Assembly: GCA_965215185.1 (NCBI GenBank)
Contig: OZ244034.1
Location: 3,040,001 to 3,104,000 of the forward strand
Direction of reading: 5' to 3'
Length of the DNA stretch: 64,000 bases
Origin: Acidimicrobiia bacterium
GTDB lineage: Bacteria; Actinomycetota; Acidimicrobiia; Spongiisociales; ZC4RG35
Both the position numbers and the translations under genes were made by a program. Shown here piece by piece: positions 44,118 through 64,000 of the stretch. Position 1 is the stretch's first letter. Every line of letters starts with the position of its first letter. The notes below the pieces were generated by a model that saw only the letters and a program-made list of their open reading frames with translations, did no database searches and was not told the DNA's origin.

Positions 44118-44331
44118 CAGCGGGGTCTTCGCGTGTTGGGCCTGTGTTAGTTCGCGGGTTAGGGGTGTTGGTGGGGGTTCTGGCCTGTTTTCGGGGTGTT
44201 CGGGTGTGTTTGGCCGGTGTTCGGGGGTGTGTGGCGGTGGTTGCGGGTGGTGTTGGCCGCGACGGCCGGTTCTGGACGCGTTTGGTTTGACGGGTGGGGT
44301 TCCCGTCAGCGGGGAGCGGTAGGGGGTTGGT

Positions 44332-46122
44332 TTATGGGGGTGCTCGGGTGGGTGTGAGCTGGCCTGGGCGTTGGGTTGGTGCGTCTGGTGGGGTGGTGTC
44401 GGGGTTCGTCTGTTCGGCGTGGTCCGCTGTGGCATGGTTGCGGTTCTTGGGGCGGCGGGTTCTTCCGGTTTGTTCGAGGTTGTGGATGACGGCTGCCATG
44501 AGCGCGGCGAGTGTGTGGGGAGCGAGACCGAACGCGCGGCAGGAGTCCTTCTCTAGGCTGCCGTCGTCTTTGATCATGCCGTTGACGCCTTCGACGGGGT
44601 TGCGTCCGGCGTAGTCGGTTGCCCACTTCGTGGTGCCGTAGGCGTTGCGCTGGTGGTTGTCGAGTTCGTCGACACCGAGGGTGATCATCCCGTCGCAGCA
44701 GGTTTCCCTGTCGGCGACGGCGGTGACGGGCAGGGGGGTGCGGCGTTTGCGGCGGTTGGCCCGTTCGGATTTGCGGGTTTTGGCTGTGCTTCTGACTTTG
44801 CCTGCGCATTGGGGGCAGATGATCTTCTTCCGCCCGTCGGGGAAGCGTCCGATGACTACCCATGCGTATTTGGCTCGTTCGTCGAACCATTCTTGGCGGT
44901 CGGTTCCGGTCAGCCCGTCGGATGGGCTGAGTAGGTGTTCTGGTGTCCATTCGACGAGAGGGGTGCCACAGTTCACATAGATGGGGGTGTTGTTTCTGCC
45001 TGCGGTGATGAGCTTGACGCCTCCCTGTTTGTCTTTGGCCTGGTTCATTACGATCTCCCAGCCGTGTTCATGTAGGGGCCGGACGAAGGTCGTTTTCTTG
45101 GCGGTGTAGTGCTGGTCGGCTTTCACGACTTCGACGCGGGGTGCTAGCTGCTTCGCTTTGGTGGCTACCTGATATCCGATGGGTCCGACGTGTTGGTCGG
45201 CGGCTGCGAGGACCATCGAGACAATGTACGGGGAGACAGGCTCCTGCCGTTTGCCCCGGATGGAGGCGCGTACTGCAACGGCTAGATGAGCGAAGTAGCC
45301 GTTGAACCCCCCGGCTGGGTGTTTCGACGTTGCGCTGCGGCGGCCGGAGCCGTCTTCGACGTCCTTGGTGTGTTGGATCTTGCCGTTGAGCTTGAAGATC
45401 GTTTCAGGGGGTATGCGGCCGGCGTCGATCTCTGACTGGCGTGTGAAGTCGGTGGTGCGTGCCCAGGTTTGGTAGTCGGTGCCGTCGAGGGCGATCTCGG
45501 AGACCTTGCTAGCGACCCATTTGGGAATCGACGGCCCGAGGAAGCGGTCGACCATCCATTGCAGATCGATGCGGGTCCCGTCGGCTGTTTCCGCTCCGTC
45601 GCGGAGGAAGCGTTCGATGCGGTGGGCCTGACGCCAGACGAGGTTGTAGGACACGAGCGAGTCGCCACTGTCGGGATCCAGCAGACCCCATTCCACCGCG
45701 ACTGCAGCGTCGAGACCCGAGACAACCTCGCACAACGTAGTCCGCTTGTAGCTGCCTTGGTGCCGAGCGGCGAGGAGCATGACCGTAAGGATCATCCGGG
45801 TAGAGAGCACGGGCTGTTCCCCCGGATGGGCACGCAGGACCTCGTCTATGCGCTTGCAGACTCCGGTGTTGCCCACGTACTGATACATGCGCCGGGCGCT
45901 GAAGGCGGCAGTGAGTATCGGTCCCCGGCGGCGGATTCCCTCCTCGGCGGTATCCCCCCAGATGTGGTCACCCGACCGACCTGTTTCGTGGTCGTCGGCG
46001 CTGGGATGGTCTCTGGGTAGTCTCCTCTGAGCGTTCAGCTCGTACAGCCGGGCCGGTTCCGGGATGCCCTTCTTGGCGTACCGGTCGCGGCAGCGGCGGG
46101 CAGCCCGGGCCGTGCTGCTCAC
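44332..46122 (-). CDS. DDE transposase-like protein (IS4-superfamily YREK motif, putative Zn finger)
   Basis: IALDGTD, KADQHY, YAGRNPVEGVNGMIK (Y-2-R-3-E-6-K), CPQC...CC; three paralogs in the window. Confidence 0.8.
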   Translation of the reverse strand: MSSTARAARRCRDRYAKKGIPEPARLYELNAQRRLPRDHPSADDHETGRSGDHIWGDTAEEGIRRRGPILTAAFSARRMYQYVGNTGVCKRIDEVLRAHPGEQPVLSTRMILTVMLLAARHQGSYKRTTLCEVVSGLDAAVAVEWGLLDPDSGDSLVSYNLVWRQAHRIERFLRDGAETADGTRIDLQWMVDRFLGPSIPKWVASKVSEIALDGTDYQTWARTTDFTRQSEIDAGRIPPETIFKLNGKIQHTKDVEDGSGRRSATSKHPAGGFNGYFAHLAVAVRASIRGKRQEPVSPYIVSMVLAAADQHVGPIGYQVATKAKQLAPRVEVVKADQHYTAKKTTFVRPLHEHGWEIVMNQAKDKQGGVKLITAGRNNTPIYVNCGTPLVEWTPEHLLSPSDGLTGTDRQEWFDERAKYAWVVIGRFPDGRKKIICPQCAGKVRSTAKTRKSERANRRKRRTPLPVTAVADRETCCDGMITLGVDELDNHQRNAYGTTKWATDYAGRNPVEGVNGMIKDDGSLEKDSCRAFGLAPHTLAALMAAVIHNLEQTGRTRRPKNRNHATADHAEQTNPDTTPPDAPTQRPGQLTPTRAPP

Positions 46123-47072
46123 GCTCTCAACCCTTCGAGGGCGGCTTCTACCGGATCGAGGTCAGCGGCCGCAGCTGCCAGCAGCGCGGTGAGGGTGTCA
46201 CCCGACAACGGACCGGCGATCCGGCGCAGCGCCGACAGGGAAGTACCCGCGTGTAGGTGGGCGACCAGCCATGTGGAACGGGCACGCCGCACCGAAAGGG
46301 TACGGCCACTGATCCCAACCTGCCGACACAACATGTACACAGCGGTGCGATGCGTCGCCGAAACGAACCGTTCGCCGTCGGCCAGCTCCACAGCTTCGCG
46401 TACGAGGGATGTGTAATCGTGGCGTATCGGCACCATGCGCGGATGCGTGCCCCCGACCCGTATACCGAGCCGGTCGTTTCCGAGGTTGACCAGATCGCCG
46501 GTCTCGGCTGCTGCGACCGCCGGACTGAGCAGACCCGCCCCGAGAGTGGCAGCGACCACCCAGCGACGGCCCGCGGGCTCCACCCGGGCCGGCAAACGTG
46601 CCGACAGCCGGAACACTGCCTCATCTCCCGGCGTATACGGGCTCGACGGGGGTATGCGCCCGATCGGTTCCCCAACAGGGGCCTCGACCCAGCCGTCCGG
46701 GAACACAGCCCGCCCCACCCGGCGTAGAATCCACCTGGTGTGGCGCCGCCACACCACACTCTTATGAGCGTTCGCTTCGAACGCCCAGTACTCCACGTTG
46801 GCGGGACACAACATCCGGACATCCACCGTGGCAGACACCCCGAATGTCCAGGCAGCGAACTGCGACGTAACGCGAAGCATCTCGCGGACCATCGAAACGG
46901 TATCCGGGTGAGCAGCCGCAACCCAGCAACGTACCGTCGGCCATACCAGCGTTTCGAGGTCTCCGCTGTCATCCGGATAGGTGTCCCAAACCGGTGGGCG
47001 CCACAACGACAGCCTCGCCAGCACGTCAGGAACCAGATCGGCAGATAGCGGAGCCCGGGTGAAGCAGGTCAC
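46119..47072 (-). CDS. Tyrosine-recombinase-like protein lacking catalytic residues
   Basis: LGAGLLSPA (box I, Arg replaced by Leu); RRARSTWLVAHLHAGTSLSALRRIAGP..DTLTALL (box II-like, no His or Tyr); overlaps the transposase start by 4 bp. Confidence 0.7.
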   Translation of the reverse strand: MTCFTRAPLSADLVPDVLARLSLWRPPVWDTYPDDSGDLETLVWPTVRCWVAAAHPDTVSMVREMLRVTSQFAAWTFGVSATVDVRMLCPANVEYWAFEANAHKSVVWRRHTRWILRRVGRAVFPDGWVEAPVGEPIGRIPPSSPYTPGDEAVFRLSARLPARVEPAGRRWVVAATLGAGLLSPAVAAAETGDLVNLGNDRLGIRVGGTHPRMVPIRHDYTSLVREAVELADGERFVSATHRTAVYMLCRQVGISGRTLSVRRARSTWLVAHLHAGTSLSALRRIAGPLSGDTLTALLAAAAADLDPVEAALEGLRA

Positions 47073-50998: not shown

Positions 50999-52829
50999 TT
51001 ATGGGGGTGCCCGGGTGGGTGTGGGGCTGGTGGGGTGTGGGGGTGGTGTGGCTGATGGGGTGGTGTTGGGGGTTGTCTGGTCGGGGCAGGGGGTGCTGCT
51101 GTTGTGGTTGTCCCGGTTGCGGGTTCGTCGGGTTTGTTCGAGGTTGTGGATGACTGCGGCCATGAGCGCGGCGAGTGTGTGGGCGGCGAGACCGAACGCG
51201 CGGCAGGATGCTTTGTCGAAGCTGCCGTCGTCTTTGATCATGGAGTTGACTCCTTCGACGGGGTTACGTCCGGCGTAGTCGGTGGCCCAGTTGGTGGTTC
51301 CGTAGGCGTTGCGTTGGTGGTTGTCGAGTTGTTCGACGCTGAGGGTGATCATGCCGTCGCAGCAGTACTCGGTGTCGGGGACGGCGACGGTGGGCAGGTC
51401 GGGGTTATTCGGTGTCGGGGACGGCGATGGTGGGCTGGTCGGGGTTGTGGGTGCGGTTGGGCCGGTTGGGGTTGCGGGTCTTGGCGGTGGTCATAACGCG
51501 GCCCGCGCATTGGGGGCAGATGATTTTCTTGGTTCCGTTGGGGAAGGATTGGACGACCTTCCATTGGTATTTGGCCCGTTCGTCGTACCAGTCTTGGAGG
51601 GCGGTGCCGGTTAGGTTGTCGGGTTGGGTGAGTAGATGTGGTGGTGTCCAGACGACGAGGGGGGTGCCGCAGTGCACGAGGATGGGGGTGTTGCGTGTGC
51701 CTGCGGTGATCAGCCTGACCCGTTTCTGTTCGTCCGACGATTGGTTCATGACGATTTCCCAGCCCTGTTCGCGCAGCGGCCGGACGAAGGTGTCTTTTTT
51801 GCGGGTGTAGTGCTGGTCGGCTTTGACGACTTTGAGTTTGGGTGCGACGCGTTTGGCTTGGGTGGCCACCTCGTGTCCGATGGGTCCGGCTTCTTCGTCG
51901 GCTGGTGTGAGGGTCATAGCGACAATGTGTGGGGCGACGGAATGGTGGCGTCTGCCTTTTCGGATGGAGCGAACAAGTACAGCTAGATGAGCGAAGTAGC
52001 CATTGAAGTGTCCTGCCGGACGTTTCGACGTTTCGCTGCGGAACCCTTGCCCGGCATCGACGTCGTCTGTGCGTTGTATCTTCCCGTTGGACTTGAGGGT
52101 GGTTGTTGGCGGAACACGTCCGGCGTCGACCTCGGCTTGGGGGGTGTAGTCGGTTGTGCGGGCCCACGTTTGGTAGTCGGTGGCGTCGATGGCGATCTCG
52201 GTGGCAGCGCGAGCTGACCATTTCGCAACGGAGGGTGCGAGGAAGCGGTCGACCATCCATTGCAGGTCGATGTCGACACCGCCGGGGGTGACCGCCCCTT
52301 TCGTGAGGAATGCTTCGATGCGTCTGGCCTGACGCCAAACCAGGTTGTAGGAAACAAACGAGTTGCCGGTGTCGGGATCCAGCAGGCCCCATTCGATAGA
52401 TATCGCAGCGTCGAGGCCTGCGAGCACTTCACAAAACGCCGTCCGCGTGTATTTGCCCGTCATTTTGACGGTCAGGAGCATGACCGTGAGGATCATGCGG
52501 GTGGTAAGCACGGGTTGCGAACCCGGATGGGCACGCAACACCTGATCTATCTGTCTGCAAACCCCGGAGAGGCCCACGTACTGGCATATTCGGCGGGCTT
52601 GGGCGGGAGTGGTGATTATCGGCTCCCGGCGGCGGACTCCCTCCTCGTCGGTGTCCCCCCAGACGTTGACGCCCGCCGAGTCGGTGTCGTCGTACCGATC
52701 CGCGCTGGAGTGGTCTTTGGGCAGTTTCCGCTCACAGTTCAGCTCGTACAGGCGGGCCGGGTCCGCCATCCCCCGCGCGGCGTAACGTTCGCGGCGTCGG
52801 CGGGCAGCCCGGGGCTTGCTCACGATCAT
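50999..52829 (-). pseudogene. DDE transposase paralog split by a 40-bp duplication
   Basis: ORFs 51405-52829 and 50999-51352; imperfect tandem duplication at 51369-51446 introduces a TAA. Confidence 0.85.
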
Positions 52830-53395
52830 GCGCCCAGCCCCCCGACTGCTGCGTCGACGGGGTCCAGACCAGAAGCGGAAACGGTGAGTAGTGCGGTGAG
52901 GGTGTCACCCGAAACCGGACCAGCAATATGGCGGAGCGCAGCCAGGCTGGTGGAAGCCTGCAGATGGGCGACCAGCCAGGTGGAGCGGGCTCGTCTCACC
53001 GACAGGCTGCCATGCCCACCGAACCCGACCTGGCGACACAACGTGGACACCGCGGTGCGATGCGTTGCGGATATGAGTCGTTCCCCTCCTACCAGGCCCA
53101 ATGCTTCGGTGACCAAGGAGGTGTAATCGCGTCGGACCGGCACCACCCGCGGATGCCGACCCCGAACCCGCACAGCGACACGGCCACCATCCAAATCCAT
53201 CACATCGCTTGTCTCAGCAGCTGCGATCGCGGGACTCAGCAGGCCCGCTCCCAGAGTGGCGGCAACCACCCAACGGCGACCTGCAGGCTCCGCCCGAGCG
53301 GGAAGGCAGGCCGAGATCCGAAACGCGATCTCGTCGCCCAATGTGTACGGGCGGACGGGAACATGCTTGCGGGTCAGTTCCCCAACCGGTGGGCT
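52826..53395 (-). pseudogene. 5'-truncated tyrosine-recombinase-like paralog
   Basis: Homologous to the C-terminal half of 46119-47072; homology is lost and an in-frame stop appears above about 53400. Confidence 0.75.
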
Positions 53396-58407: not shown

Positions 58408-58845
58408 GGATAGCGAGAGGGAATTTGAGGTCCCCCCGTTTACTGCTTGGAGTCCTACCCGGACTCCCCCGGCTAAGTGCGTGGTCGGGGGGTGATGAAG
58501 TGCTTGCCCCGACGGCCTCGTCCGTGGGCAGCGCCCCCCATCTCGAGGTGACGTCCTGCCTAGTTCGGAGGTGACGTCGTCCCTAGACTTATATTGAACT
58601 GCCTGGTGGGGGGTGGTCGCGAAGACCCCACAGCGGGGTCTTCGCGTGTTACGGGGTGCTGAGTTCGCGGGTTAGGGCTGTTGGCGGGGGTTCTGGCCTG
58701 TTTCAGGGGTGTTCGGGTGTGTTTGGCCGGGGCGTGGGGGTGTGTGGCTGTGGTTACGGGGGTATGGCGGCCGCGACGGTTGGTTCTGGACGCGGTTGAT
58801 TGGACGGGGTGGGTTCCCGTCAAAGATGAGCGGTAGGGGGTTGGT

Positions 58846-60630
58846 TTATGGGGGTGCGCGGGTGGGTGTGGACTGGCCTGGGCGTTGGGTTGGTGAGGCT
58901 GCGGTGGTGTCGGGGGTTGCCTGGTCGGCGCGGGCTGGGGTGCTTGGGTTGTCCTTCTCGGGGTTTTGGGTTCTTCCGGTTTGTTCGAGGTTGTGGATGA
59001 CGGCGGCGGCGAGAGCGGCGAGTGTGTGGGGGGCGAGGCCGAACGCGCGGCAGGAGTCCTTCTCGAAGCTGCCGTCGTCTTTGATCATGCCGTTGACGCC
59101 TTCGACGGGGTTGCGGCCGGCGTAGTCGGTTGCCCATTTGGTGGTGCCGTAGGCGTTGCGTTGGTGGTTGTCGAGTTGGTCGACACCGATGGTGATCATG
59201 CCGTCGCAGCAGTATTTGGTGTCGGCGACGGCGGTGACGGGCAGGGGGGTGCGGCGTTTGCCGCGGTTGGCCCGGTTGCTGCGGGTTCGGGCTGTGCTTT
59301 TGACTTTGCCTGCGCATTGGGGGCACATGATCTTCTTCCGCCCGTTGGGGAAGTGTTCGATGACTACCCATTGGTATTTGGCTCGTTCGTCGAACCATTT
59401 TTGGCGGTCGGTTCCGGTCAGCCCGTCGAGTGGGCGGAGTAGGTGTTCTGGTGTCCATTCGACGAGGATGGTGCCGCAGTTCACAAGGAGGGGGGTGTTG
59501 TCTCCGCCTGCGGTGATGAGCTTGATGCCTTCCTGTCTGTCTTTGGCCTGGTTCATTACGATGTCCCAGCCGTGTTCATGTAGGGGCCGGACGAAGGTCG
59601 TTTTCTTCGCGGTGTAGTGCTGGTCGGCTTTCACGACTTTGACGCTGGGTGCTAGCTGTTTCGCTTTGGTGGCTACCTCATATCCGATGGGTCCGACGTG
59701 TTGGTCGGCGGCTGCGAGGACCATGGCGACGATGTACGGGGGGACAGGCTGCTGCCATTTGCCCCGGATGAAGGCGCGTATTGCGACGGCTAGATGAGCG
59801 AAGTAGCCGTTGAACGCCCCGGCTGGGTGTTTCGACGTTGCGCTGCGGCGGCCGGTGCCGTCTTCGTCGTCCTTGGTGCGTTGGATCTTGCCGTTGGGTT
59901 TGAGGATGGTTCCTAGGGGTATGCGGCCGGCGTTGATCTCTGACTGGGGTGTGAAGTCGGTGGTGCGTGCCCAGGTTTGGTAGTCGGTGGCGTCGAGGGC
60001 GATCTCGGTGACGTTGCGGATGGCCCGTTTGGGAATCGACGGCGCGAGGAAGCGGTCGACCATCCATTGCTGTTCGATATGGATACCGCTGGGGGTGGTC
60101 GCTTCCTTCGTCAGGAAGCGTTCGATGCGTTGGGCCTGACGCCAGACCATGTTGTAGGACAGCAGCGAGTCGCCGCTGTCGGGATCCAGCAGACCCCATT
60201 TAATAGCGACCGCGGCGTCGAGGCCCGAGAGGACTTCGCACAACACGGTCCGCTTGTAGCTGCCTTGGTGCTGGGCGGCGAGGAGTATGGCTGTGAGGAT
60301 CATCCGGGTAGATAGCACGGGCTGTTCCCCCGGATGGGCACGCAGCACTTCGTCTATGCGCTTGCAGACTCCGGTGTTGCCCGCGTACTGATACATGCGC
60401 CGGGCGTCGGCCTCGTTCGTGAGTATCGGTCCCCGGCGGCGGAGTCCCTCCTCGGCGGTATCCCCCCAGATGTGGGCACCCGACCGACCTGTTTCGTGGT
60501 CGTCGGCGCTGGGATGGTCTCTGGGCAGCATCCGCTGAGCGTTCAGCTCGTACAGGCGGGCAGGGTCCGGCAGGCCCCGGGCGGCGCAACGATCGCGGCG
60601 GCGGCGGGCAGCACGGGCCGGGCTGCTCAC
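58846..60630 (-). CDS. DDE transposase-like protein (intact paralog)
   Basis: IALDATD, KADQHY, YAGRNPVEGVNGMIK, CPQC...CC. Confidence 0.8.
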   Translation of the reverse strand: MSSPARAARRRRDRCAARGLPDPARLYELNAQRMLPRDHPSADDHETGRSGAHIWGDTAEEGLRRRGPILTNEADARRMYQYAGNTGVCKRIDEVLRAHPGEQPVLSTRMILTAILLAAQHQGSYKRTVLCEVLSGLDAAVAIKWGLLDPDSGDSLLSYNMVWRQAQRIERFLTKEATTPSGIHIEQQWMVDRFLAPSIPKRAIRNVTEIALDATDYQTWARTTDFTPQSEINAGRIPLGTILKPNGKIQRTKDDEDGTGRRSATSKHPAGAFNGYFAHLAVAIRAFIRGKWQQPVPPYIVAMVLAAADQHVGPIGYEVATKAKQLAPSVKVVKADQHYTAKKTTFVRPLHEHGWDIVMNQAKDRQEGIKLITAGGDNTPLLVNCGTILVEWTPEHLLRPLDGLTGTDRQKWFDERAKYQWVVIEHFPNGRKKIMCPQCAGKVKSTARTRSNRANRGKRRTPLPVTAVADTKYCCDGMITIGVDQLDNHQRNAYGTTKWATDYAGRNPVEGVNGMIKDDGSFEKDSCRAFGLAPHTLAALAAAVIHNLEQTGRTQNPEKDNPSTPARADQATPDTTAASPTQRPGQSTPTRAPP

Positions 60631-61292
60631 GCTCTCAACCCTTCGAGGGCGGCTTCTACCGGGTCGCGACCGGTAGCAGAGGCGGCCAGCAGCGCGGTGA
60701 GGGTGTCACCCGACAGCGGACCGGCGATCCGGCGGAGCGCGGACAGGGGAGTGGCGGCGTGTAGGTGGGCGACCAGCCAGGTGGAACGGGCACGCCGCAC
60801 TGAAAGGGTACGGCCACTGATCCCGACCTGGCGGCACAACATGTACACCGCTGTGCGATGCGTGGCCCGAACGAAGCGACCGGTACCTACTAACCCTGCG
60901 GCTTCGGTGACCAGGGGGCTGTAGTCGGCTCGGATGGGGACCACACGCGGATGCCTGCCCCCGACCCGTATACCGAGCCGGTCGTTTCCGAGGTTGACCA
61001 GATCGCCGGGCTCGGCTGCTGCGACCGCCGGGCTAAGCAGACCAGCCCCGAGGGTGGCGGCGACCACCCACCGTCGGCCTGCGGGCTCCGCCCGGGCCGG
61101 CAGGCAAGCCGACAGTCGGAACGCTGCTTCGTCTCCCGGCCCATACGGGCCGGACGGGGGTCTGCGCCCGATCGGTTCCCCAACAGGGGCCTTGGCCCAG
61201 CCGTCCGCGAACACAGCCCGCCCCACCCGGCGTAGAAGCCACCTCGTGTGGCGGCGCCACACCAGACTCCTATGAGCGTTCGCTTCTAAAGC
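60627..61292 (-). pseudogene. Tyrosine-recombinase-like gene interrupted by ISL3
   Basis: Homology to E1 continues to 61292 and stops at GGCTCTTCG. Confidence 0.8.
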
Positions 61293-62724
61293 GGCTCTTC
61301 GGAAATGAGGGGGGAGTAGGGGGTCGGCTAGGTGGTGCCGTAATCCACCAGAAGTGATGGGGGGTCCTCCATAATCGGATGGTTGGTAACAGACATCCGA
61401 GGCAGGAGGACCCCTGTGGAAGCTGATCCTACGCGCATGTGCGAGAAGTTGGTAGGCCTGGGCGAGGTTGATCTGGTCGGGATCAACGACTTGGGCGAGG
61501 AGGCACCTTTGGAGGTGGTGATCGGGTCCCGCAAGGCCCGGCCGGTGTGTGAGGGCTGTGGCGGCCCTGTGTGGTCGAAAGGCTATCGGAGTGTGGTGTT
61601 GGTGGATTTACCGGCGTTCGGACGGCCTGTGCGGCTGCGGTGGAGGAAACGGCGCTGGACGTGTCCGAACTCGGGGTGTGAGATCAGGTCGTTCATCGAA
61701 CAAGACCCCAAGATTGGTCCCGAACGGGCGTTGTTGACATCGAGAGCGGCTCGGTGGGTGACCATCGGGGTGGGTGGGCGGGGCCGTTCGGTCGACGAGG
61801 TCGCCGCGGAGTTGGGTTGTGATTGGCATACGGTGAACAACGAGGTCGTCCGTTGGGGCGAAGCGCTGCTGGGGGCCGACACCGATCGGATAGGCGAGGT
61901 CGGAGCTGTGGGCATCGACAAGAAGCGTTGTTGGGGCGGAAAGGCCGGTGGCGCACCAAGGTTTGGTGCACTTCTGTCGTCGATGTGGGAGGCCACCAGC
62001 CGGTTCGACATAGTCGGTGGTAGAACGGCTGATAGCGCGGTGTCGTGGTTCCGATCCCAGCCCCCCGAGTGGCTCGACGGGATCCGCTGGGCGGTGTCGG
62101 GTCATGTCAGGGCCTTATCGGAAGGCGTACGACCGGGTGTTGCCGAACGCTGTGCAGGTAGCGGACCCGTTCGGTGTCATCCGCTTGGCCAACCAGCGTC
62201 TCGACGACCTACGACGAAGAGTCCAAAACGAAACCCTCGGGCATCGAGGACGCAAGGATGACCCGCTGTATCGGATACGGCGGCTCCTCACCGCCGCTTC
62301 CGAGAGGATCAGCGACCGCGGTCAAACACGGCTGCGTGGTCTCCTCGACGCTGGTGACCCCCACAGCGAAGTCCGCACCGCCTGGCACGCGAAGGAAACG
62401 GTCCGAGGCATCTACGGGGTCGACAGTCCCGCCCTCGCTCTCCGATACACCGTCGGGCTCGCGGACGACCTCCAGGACGAATCCTGCCCACCCGAGATCA
62501 ACAAGTTGGGTCGTACCATCGCCCGCTGGACCCCCCAGATCACCAACTGGCACATCTCGAAGGTAACCAACAGATGCCACCGAAGCCCTCAACAACCTCA
62601 TCAAGCGGATCAAACGAGCAGCGTTCGGGTTACCCAACTTCGCGAACTACCGAATCCGGGCACTTCTCTACGCGGGGAAACCCAACTGGGACCTCCTGGC
62701 CACCGTCACTCCCCACTGAAATCC
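61293..62724 (+). mobile_element. ISL3 family IS with a multiply frameshifted transposase (about 61383-62719)
   Basis: Left IR GGCTCTTCGGAAATGAG; CxxC...DLP.FGRPV.L.W.KRRW.C, GID, QVADPF, EALNNLIKRIKR..FG..NF.NYR spread over three frames. Confidence 0.9.
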
Positions 62725-62954
62725 ACTCATACTTGGAGGGTTCCTGGGCTGGGACGGGTCTGACCCAACTGAAATCTGGCCTTGTGCCTTTTCATCGATC
62801 TGTCGGCCCGTTCCCGGCCTGGGGCGTGACCCCGTGACCCGGGGCGGATGTGACCTAATAGGAGCCTTCAACTTCTCCACCGTGAGTGGCCTGTCCAACC
62901 GCACACGGGTCCGGGATCAGGAAGTGAGTCTATCCCCTAGAGGAGAAGAGCATC
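62725..62954 (+). ncRNA. Putative IS110 bridge RNA region (left non-coding end)
   Basis: 230-bp non-coding end with stem-loops; ACTGAAATC (62768) matches the target flank, and TGAGTGG (62883) is complementary to the element end. Confidence 0.6.
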
Positions 62955-64000
62955 ATGGGAGAAGCAGACCAGATTATCTACGGTGGGGTTGACACCCATC
63001 GGGACGTCCACGTAGCAGCGGTGGTGGATGGCGTCGGGCGGGTACTGGGATCGGAGTCTTTCGCGGTGGAGGAATCCGGTTATCGGCGAATGGTCACCTG
63101 GTTCGAGTCGCGGGGACAGTTGGTTCGGGTTGGGGTGGAAGGAACGGGTAGTTACGGCGCCGGCCTGGCCCGTTACCTGACCGAGATGAACATCGAGGTG
63201 GTGGAGGTCAACCGCCCCAACCGCCAACTACGCCGCCAGAAGGGCGGCAAGACCGACAGCGTCGACGCCGAGGCGGCAGCTCGGGCAGCTGCCTCGGGCG
63301 AAGCAACCGCGGTTCCCAAGTCCGGTGTGGGCCCGGTCGAGTGCATACGGATGCTGTGGGTGGTGCGCCGCTCCGCGGTCAAGGCCCGCACCCAGGCCGC
63401 TAACCAGATACATGCGCTGGTCGTAACAGCTCCCGAGCCGCTAAAACACCAGCTAAAGGGCATGAATCTCAAAGCACGGGTCAAAACCTGTGCCCGGTTC
63501 CGACCCGGCACAGACCACACCACCACCGCGTATGCGAAGCGTGCCCTACAGCATTTGGCCCGCCGGTATCAGGCTCTCGACGTAGAGATCGCCCAACTCG
63601 AAGCCGAGATCCGGCGTCTCTGCGCCCAGGCCAACCCGGCCCTGCTGGCCACAGAAGGTGTCGGTCCTGACACAGCCGCCGCGTTGTTGGTCGCCGCCGG
63701 CGACAACCCCAAGCGAATGAAATCGGAACGGTCTTTCGCGGCGCTGTGCGGCGCCAGCCCCGTCCAGGCGTCATCAGGACGAACCCTTCGGCATCGTCTC
63801 AACCGGGGCGGCAACCGCCAAGCCAACAACGCGCTATGGCGGATCGCTACCACCCGGATGCGCACCGACGCCGCCACCAAAGCCTACGTGGCACGACGCA
63901 AGGCCGAGGGCAAGAAGAAAAAGGAGATCATCCGCTGCCTCAAGCGGCACATCGCCCGAGAAATCTACCGGCTCCTCACCAACCCGCACCCAACCCCGAA
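62955..64000 (+). CDS. IS110 family recombinase (runs off the window)
   Basis: Manual translation: MGEADQIIYGGVDTHRDVH..., VGVEGTGSYGAGL, GKTDSVDA, SPVQASSG, RLNRGGNRQAN, RCLKR. Confidence 0.93.
   Translation, partial: MGEADQIIYGGVDTHRDVHVAAVVDGVGRVLGSESFAVEESGYRRMVTWFESRGQLVRVGVEGTGSYGAGLARYLTEMNIEVVEVNRPNRQLRRQKGGKTDSVDAEAAARAAASGEATAVPKSGVGPVECIRMLWVVRRSAVKARTQAANQIHALVVTAPEPLKHQLKGMNLKARVKTCARFRPGTDHTTTAYAKRALQHLARRYQALDVEIAQLEAEIRRLCAQANPALLATEGVGPDTAAALLVAAGDNPKRMKSERSFAALCGASPVQASSGRTLRHRLNRGGNRQANNALWRIATTRMRTDAATKAYVARRKAEGKKKKEIIRCLKRHIAREIYRLLTNPHPTP

Follow-up and report, generated by a model that had tools for sequence, protein, structure and literature searches.

We describe an insertion sequence of the IS110 group, here called copy A, that interrupts the right inverted repeat of an ISL3-family element in the genome of an Acidimicrobiia bacterium (OZ244034.1, a single contig of 3,121,534 bp). 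Both elements lie near the end of the window, the whole 64-kb stretch analysed here (64,000 nucleotides, genome positions 3040001-3104000), and positions are given in window coordinates unless marked as genome positions. Copy A very probably entered the ISL3 repeat by RNA-guided insertion, using a DEDD/serine bridge recombinase and a bridge RNA encoded in its own left end. This conclusion is carried by the anatomy of the element, the covariation of its guides with its flanks, the comparison of filled with empty target sites and the conservation of catalytic residues. It agrees with an original prediction, made from the letters alone, of an IS110 programmed against ISL3 ends, with other copies expected in ISL3 repeats: a second copy in the same genome (copy B) and 16 of 17 same-guide elements in the genome OZ253564.1 are found in such repeats. 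The principal features, all on the forward (+) strand, are as follows.

61293..62724, +, decayed ISL3-family element lacking its last 8 bp; left inverted repeat from 61293 (GGCTCTTCGG...)
62709..62724, +, inner part of the ISL3 right inverted repeat, forming the left half of the IS110 target (from the filled/empty site comparison)
62725..64000 in the window, continuing to 64200, +, IS110-group insertion sequence, copy A, 1476 bp (from filled/empty sites and copy alignment)
62725..62954, +, left non-coding end, putative bridge-RNA template, 230 nt (from the map of open reading frames (ORFs) and the sequence)
62955..64000 in the window, ending at 64184, +, IS110 recombinase gene, 409 aa (intact ORF; its stop codon overlaps the right-end TTGACA)

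Element boundaries and recombinase

Copy A extends 200 bp beyond the window, its final bases reading ...TTGACAACCATAGGAGCATC at 64200, and the ISL3 tip, the octamer GATGAGCC, follows directly at 64201-64208. The terminal octamer of ISL3 had been taken to be replaced by the IS110 end; the IS110 does start at that point, but the octamer is displaced, not lost. The insertion point lies 8 bp from the ISL3 tip, between ...ACTGAAATCC and GATGAGCC. Four empty ISL3 sites, two in other ISL3 copies of the same genome and one in each of two related genomes, read CACTCCCCACTGA(A/T)ATCC|GATGA(G/A)CC, and 15 further exact empty sites are present in OZ253564.1 (G061). Comparing filled with empty sites defines the inserted segment as ACTCAT...GGAGCATC, without duplication. 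The insertion is scarless: filled and empty sites differ by exactly 1476 bp and share only the C adjoining the crossover. The core of the empty target is CC (...AAATCC|GATGAGCC), and the right junction of the filled site reads TC-GATGAGCC. A right junction of CC-GAAGAGCC had been expected; the octamer is indeed present there, in a form other than the predicted one, which itself stands at 4 of 13 right junctions in OZ253564.1.

The target belongs to an ISL3 repeat by several lines of evidence. As originally noted, CTCCCCACTGAAATCC (62709-62724) agrees with the reverse complement of the ISL3 left repeat, which starts GGCTCTTCGGAAATGAGGGGGGAG from 61293, at 12/16 positions; within it, the guide matches 62715-62723 and the CC core occupies 62723-62724. 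The ISL3 terminal inverted repeats begin GGCTCTTC, as in the ISL3 family, and left and right match at 19/24 positions once the tip is rejoined. The ISL3 transposase is broken over at least two reading frames in the ORF listing: Zn_ribbon_ISL3 (PF14690) is found above the Pfam cut-off in the ORF 61383-62261, together with an HTH (PF13542) match below the cut-off, and DDE_Tnp_ISL3 (PF01610, E 5.3e-24), likewise above its cut-off, lies in a different frame, in the ORF 62017-62763. Further ISL3 copies of the same genome are 81-84% identical to the copy at 61293.

The recombinase contains DEDD_Tnp_IS110 (PF01548; E 7.4e-24, 84.7 bits against a cut-off of 29) and Transposase_20 (PF02371; E 1.2e-19, 70.9 bits against a cut-off of 21.3), and it aligns to the IS621 recombinase (PDB 8wt6) with an E value of 9.5e-12. 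In this alignment D13, E62, D101, D104 and S274-G275 stand opposite IS621 D11, E60, D102, D105 and S241-G242, among which D11, E60, D102, D105 and S241 are named as catalytic in the IS621 structural account (Hiraizumi et al. 2024, PMC11208158). Only 16 nt separate the recombinase stop codon from the right end. In copy A, neither terminal nor subterminal inverted repeats exceed chance expectation (best match 7 of 8-9 nt, reached by 32/100 shuffles). These recombinase domains, and a long non-coding left end without inverted repeats, are features of the IS110 group; those of the IS1111 group, namely subterminal inverted repeats of 11-13 bp and a right-end guide, were not found in copy A.

Copy B, at genome 3012.7-3014.2 kb, occupies the same position in a second ISL3, of which only 175 bp remain. 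It is 81-82% identical to copy A overall and frameshifted near codon 295, and the alignment of the two copies begins inside ISL3 and stops exactly after GATGAGCC. The genome carries many further IS110 relatives, whose recombinases are ~67% identical in protein.

Leader, guides and their covariation with target flanks

Four candidate guides can be read in the left end of copy A, two for the target and two for the donor.

62741..62825, +, target-binding loop module (from the RNAalifold consensus of 20 elements and pair counts)
62768..62776, +, left target guide ACTGAAATC, identical to 62715-62723; expected to pair with the bottom strand
62792..62799, +, right target guide TCATC, core-binding GA and a U (candidate handshake base), together reverse-complementary to A-TC-GATGA
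62858..62865, +, left donor guide ATAGGAGC, identical to the subterminal right end (...ATAGGAGCATC)
62883..62889, +, right donor guide TGAGTGG, complementary to CC+ACTCA at the left junction (CCACTCA, 62723-29)

Of the four, the original prediction had picked out two correctly, the left target and the right donor guide, including the complementarity of TGAGTGG to the junction, where it would act as the right donor guide; TCATCGA (right target guide) and ATAGGAGC (left donor guide) had been missed. The identity of ACTGAAATC to the target flank, and its place inside a GGGACGGGTC/GGCCCGTTCCC stem, are likewise borne out. In the consensus fold, 62741-62764 pairs with 62802-62825 over 20 pairs and encloses an internal loop (62765-62801) with a mini-hairpin of 3 pairs (62778-80 with 62786-88). 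GGGACGGGTC (62751-60) and GGCCCGTTCCC (62805-15) are the two strands of this closing stem. Counted over 19 distinct sequences, 95.5% of its cells are paired, versus 45-61% with the partners shifted out of step, and in 6 pairs both bases vary. For the target half, the alignment thus supports the RNA fold that had been envisaged, with both target guides in the internal loop. Among 20 aligned left ends the scaffold is kept, and the 10 bases after GACCC and the 6 before GAUCUG are hypervariable; both hypervariable blocks fall in the single internal loop of the RNAalifold fold, and the GAT of the right target guide is invariant in 20/20.

The guides covary with the flanks. The 28 junction records contain 20 distinct 9-nt left guides. 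With each guide represented by its first record, 15/20 left guides match their own left flank at ≥8/9 positions, versus 7/380 non-cognate pairs. The right guide complements the right junction of copy A at 5/5 positions plus the core C, the right flank being GATGAGCC; across distinct guides the 5-nt right guide matches its own right flank at 5/5 in 6/11, and non-cognate pairs do so in 1/110. The right guide was initially taken as six bases, of which the sixth is usually mismatched, and we therefore read it as five bases plus core. Accordingly, the 5′ side of the target loop reads as the left top strand, its 3′ side complements the right top strand, and the two sides covary with their flanks. 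The right donor guide also covaries: elements with the left end ACTCC have GGAGTGG, and those with an AC core have GAGTGTT. The left donor guide is invariant in 20/20 left ends and the matching right-end sequence is present in 10/12 aligned right ends; because guide and right end are both invariant, this pair is uninformative on covariation. The donor guides lie only ~16-20 nt apart.

Guides that differ from those of copy A also spell the sites of their own elements. Copy G has the left guide AACTCAACC and the right-guide complement AAGCC, and its site is ...CAACTCAACC|AAGCCATC in the recombinase gene of a different IS110. For copy D (left guide TATGAAACC, right-guide complement GGCAC) an empty counterpart, TATGAAACCCGGCAC, is present elsewhere in the same genome. 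Copy C has the left guide TTGACAAAC, which spells its own site in the neighbouring copy D, within the TTGACA box at the right end of D; read from its letters, copy C appears to be aimed at the promoter half of its own relatives. The leader is matched in 12/16 other genomes of the same genus.

A pattern scan for the target-loop sequence, with one genome per species, returned 22 loci, 17 of them in OZ253564.1 (Candidatus Spongiisociaceae, class Acidimicrobiia; 5.06 Mb). There, 16/17 elements with the target loop have the ISL3 repeat ...CCCCACTGAAATCC directly to their left. Right ends were found for 13 of these elements, followed by GATGAGCC in 9 and by GAAGAGCC in 4; beyond the tip octamer, all 13 readable right flanks differ. 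Filled junctions (15 exact and 1 near-exact) coexist with empty ISL3 repeats (15 exact and 11 with 1-2 mismatches). Six ISL3 right repeats of this genome read GAAACGCGATGAGCC, with AAACGC for AAATCC, and are changed exactly at the crossover; 0/6 are occupied, versus ~16 of ~36 repeats of the AAATCC type, and the AAACGC repeats may be ones that escape the guide. Copy A is 99% identical to one element of OZ253564.1 and copy B 97% to a different one, from which we take both subtypes to be young and to be shared between genomes. The remaining 5 loci of the scan comprise one contig cut at the element ends, three more distant elements (L045, L046 and L052) that share the left guide but differ in right guide and target, and one locus without insertion sequence context (L042, Microterricola), which was taken as a chance match and set aside as an element.

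Several further arrangements were seen among relatives. Copies C and D form a tandem at genome 1095.5-1099.3 kb (L031), with C inserted in D at GATTTGACAAAC, and another right end (row M of the right-end alignment) likewise has a second right-end remnant after it. Copies G and H (genome 978.2-981.1 and 370.8-375.2 kb; L032 and L035) lie inside the recombinase gene of a distant IS110 (~40% protein identity), at the conserved site ...GDRQLN|QAIHTIA..., where their guides match at 9/9 and 5/5. A sub-family with the left end ACTCCAT and the left guide ACTGAAATT or ATCGAAATT (L004, L006, L018 and L007, in genomes G012, G013 and G016) occupies the repeated site ...GCGATCAYNGAAATTCC, and in L007 another IS110 is inserted in inverse orientation into the left end of the sub-family element. 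At L038 (G002:C1, ~1249.9 kb) and L039 (G015), an ISL3-type right repeat holds only a 21-bp footprint, ACTCATACTTGT+AGGAGCATC, consisting of the first 12 and last 9 bases of an IS110, as though a deletion between short TAGG homologies had removed its interior. The DNA upstream of the L038/L039 repeat is not an ISL3 transposase gene, and the two loci may represent a miniature derivative.

Element ends also suggest how the leader could be expressed. CATACT at 62728-62733 is the −10 half of a predicted promoter that is completed only in the circular form. Across the joined ends, a −35-like hexamer of the right end stands exactly 17 nt from CATACT (16) or CATAAT (7) in 23/23 complete elements, and it is a perfect TTGACA in 19/23. 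No promoter-like site was found in the integrated state at 62600-63100. We propose that excision would yield a circle in which the right end is joined to the left end, that TTGACA placed 17 nt from CATACT would drive transcription of the ~200-nt leader, that AUAGGAGC and UGAGUGG in the donor loop would hold the joined element ends, and that the recombinase would exchange strands beside the invariant core C. Transcription, the guide pairing itself and the effect on ISL3 are here predicted from the sequence; by parting the ISL3 tip from the rest of its repeat, the insertion should disable that ISL3 copy.

Alternative explanations, register and core

A number of observations weigh against RNA-guided insertion as set out above, and the first group concerns the RNA. 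Folded as a single sequence, the leader is ordinary (−93.5 kcal/mol, z = −0.95, with 34/200 shuffles as good). An Rfam scan returned no family for the leader, its weak matches (radC, E 0.25; CRISPR-DR8; P26) lying elsewhere or being due to chance. The consensus fold of 20 elements supports no closing helix for the donor loop: the trial helices GGAUG/CUGUCC and GACC/GGUC were dropped, as they involve variable positions without covariation; a hairpin in the invariant GUGACCUNAUAGGAGC offers no variation to test and clashes with the donor-guide role; and a 3′ helix proposed by the RNAalifold consensus was also left unused. A 154-nt contig from a sponge metatranscriptome run (RNA library) covers 62764-62906, from target to donor guide, with no mismatches, and is a weak hint of leader transcription, and only that because DNA carry-over is possible. 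Among the contigs of public runs, none carries the circle joint of 64200 to 62725 and none skips the element to show an empty site at this locus, where stretches without RNA-run cover carry no information. One joint that goes back from the right end to a point inside ISL3 is unexplained.

The second group concerns the guides. L061 in OZ253564.1, the one exception among 17, has the target guides yet sits outside an ISL3 repeat. In copies A, B and D and in the three guide types L009, L003 and L020/L023, the left guide matches at 8-9/9 yet stops one position before the junction; the left guides of ten other guide types run flush to it. The extra C belongs to the target, as seen in empty sites, and the target is one C longer than the guides jointly spell. 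The right target and right donor guides keep the same register in the flush and offset classes. The offset amounts either to a bulged C of the C-run or to a guide read one base on with a U.G wobble. In addition, the core letters of the RNA spell TC, versus CC in the target, and the first position differs. The CC core of the original prediction is that of the empty target. In the right target guide the core-binding GA, invariant in 20/20, fits the TC that ends the right ends in 10/12 rows, the two others being one truncated and one diverged end. In the left guide the first core base may be T, C or A, and the right donor guide follows, with U where that base is A in 4/5 and G with C or T in the rest. 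Hiraizumi et al. (PMC11208158) describe a first core base that is less conserved and bases beside the guides that pair after strand exchange, and the variable first core base here may be a stronger form of the same phenomenon.

These irregularities permit a tentative reading, which we consider possible but would not presume. It holds, jointly, that the four guides lack a common core, with left target and right donor guides spelling the xC of the left junction and right target and left donor guides the TC of the right junction, and that in a recurrent subset of natural guide/target pairs the target is one base longer, through a bulged core C or a U.G wobble. The RNA would then fit products better than substrates, which would bias the reaction towards insertion. 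If both parts were true, natural bridge RNAs would tolerate a one-base register slip at the crossover, with a bearing on off-target prediction.

Guide-directed homing must also be weighed against common descent of the filled sites. A single IS110 might have entered an ISL3 repeat once, with the composite ISL3::IS110 then spreading by ISL3 transposition or recombination, in which case the many filled repeats would be copies of one event and hold little information on homing. Copies A and B are 94-97% identical over the ISL3 flank and the first 150 nt versus ~80% in the recombinase gene, a contrast that points to exchange between copies and is unlike simple independent insertions. Comparably, L002, in a related genome, occupies the identical ISL3 position with G-type guides that match it at only 3/9 and 2/5, a further point against guidance at that site. 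L002 is 79% like G and 72% like A, and by analogy with the recombination through donor halves described in the 'half-match' preprint it could have arisen through the donor halves of a resident copy, or by conversion between copies. Yet the 8-bp tip has been moved 1.5 kb from its repeat, which should block ISL3 transposition; filled (15-16) and exact empty (15) repeats stand together in G061; at least four ISL3 3′-end variants are combined with two IS110 subtypes; and the covariation extends over ~20 other targets independent of ISL3. We therefore regard spread from a single entry as unlikely.

Less probable still is that the identities between leader and flanks are by-products, arising by chance or from captured target, and that the protein picks the site. 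The shuffle-like fold of the single leader, the lack of a match to any curated RNA family and the exceptions (L002, L061 and several copies at only 4-7/9) speak for such a reading. They are set against the excess of cognate over non-cognate matches (15/20 vs 7/380), the confinement of the variable positions to fixed places in a conserved internal loop, and the reading of opposite strands by the two sides, as in IS621. RNA-guided insertion of an IS110-group element into the ISL3 right repeat accordingly remains our conclusion.

Host element, known systems and significance

The ISL3 host lies beside other repeated DNA. It starts 7 nt past the end of a 2.5-kb repeat, where the homology stops, and has no 8-bp target duplication around it (TCTAAAGC vs GCATTACT). 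The 2.5-kb repeat occurs three times within the window (58800-61293, 44286-46778 and ~51500-53340); relative to the copy adjoining ISL3, the closest copy (44286-46778) is 88% identical and the other 76%. It codes for a 594-aa ORF with a sub-threshold DDE_Tnp_1_6 match only and a 211-aa ORF without family, and is probably another mobile element. A three-level nesting had been proposed, of IS110 in ISL3 in a further element. The DNA to the right of ISL3 has no counterpart beside the other copies of the 2.5-kb repeat and is unrelated to the sequence that follows them, so the third level is unsupported and we do not retain it.

Bridge-RNA guidance is described for IS621, in which, according to the published scheme, left guides are in top-strand sense, right guides are complementary and each of them includes the core (Durrant et al. 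2024, PMC11208160); the same account describes a promoter rebuilt across the joined ends. Copy A resembles IS621, as there described, in its DEDD RuvC-like domain and Tnp domain with a catalytic serine, a putative guide RNA specified by the left end, upstream of the gene, a left target guide of 9 nt in top-strand sense, a right target guide that complements the top strand, candidate donor guides with sequence matches to both element ends, an invariant second and variable first core base, a predicted promoter across the joined ends, and the lack of inverted repeats and of target duplication. It differs from IS621 in several respects. The recombinases are only distantly related (E 9.5e-12, over a partial alignment). 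The core is xC/TC, in contrast to CT as reported for IS621, and the right target guide has 5+2 nt, in contrast to the four bases given there. The donor guides are ~16-20 nt apart, and a helix for the donor loop was not recovered. Copy A targets a transposon end, whereas the target of IS621 is described as a REP sequence, and a subset of elements that includes copy A would pair one base out of register.

The mechanism itself is known, and homing of IS110-family elements to transposon ends has already been described. IS1383 of Pseudomonas putida is reported to target the inverted repeats of IS1384 (Muller et al. 2001, cited in PMC11208160), which is listed as an IS5-family element in a table of PMC5141477; as so described, it too is an IS110-family element that has the inverted repeat of another insertion sequence as its specific target, in a host element of the IS5 rather than the ISL3 family and in a different phylum. 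Homing of IS4321 and IS5075 to Tn21 ends, mentioned in the original prediction, is likewise in print. Both are DEDD-recombinase elements at a fixed position in a transposon terminal repeat, but published descriptions place them in the IS1111 group: their seekRNA lies downstream of the gene and they have subterminal inverted repeats, whereas copy A is without such repeats and has its guides upstream. Literature searches, which covered papers rather than supplementary target tables, found none that pairs an IS110 element with an ISL3 repeat.

These results extend the transposon ends targeted by IS110-family elements to ISL3 and provide a natural case in which bridge-RNA guides are readable from DNA and checkable at both filled and empty target sites. 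The mismatch at the first core base and the one-base register offset are natural examples relevant to design and off-target rules for bridge recombinases. If split core and register slip both prove true, the elements would be programmable hyperparasites, able to inactivate not only ISL3 copies but also other IS110 genes and even the promoter box of elements related to them. The family is young and diversifying in sponge-associated Acidimicrobiia, with ~20 guide variants, several of them aimed at other mobile elements.

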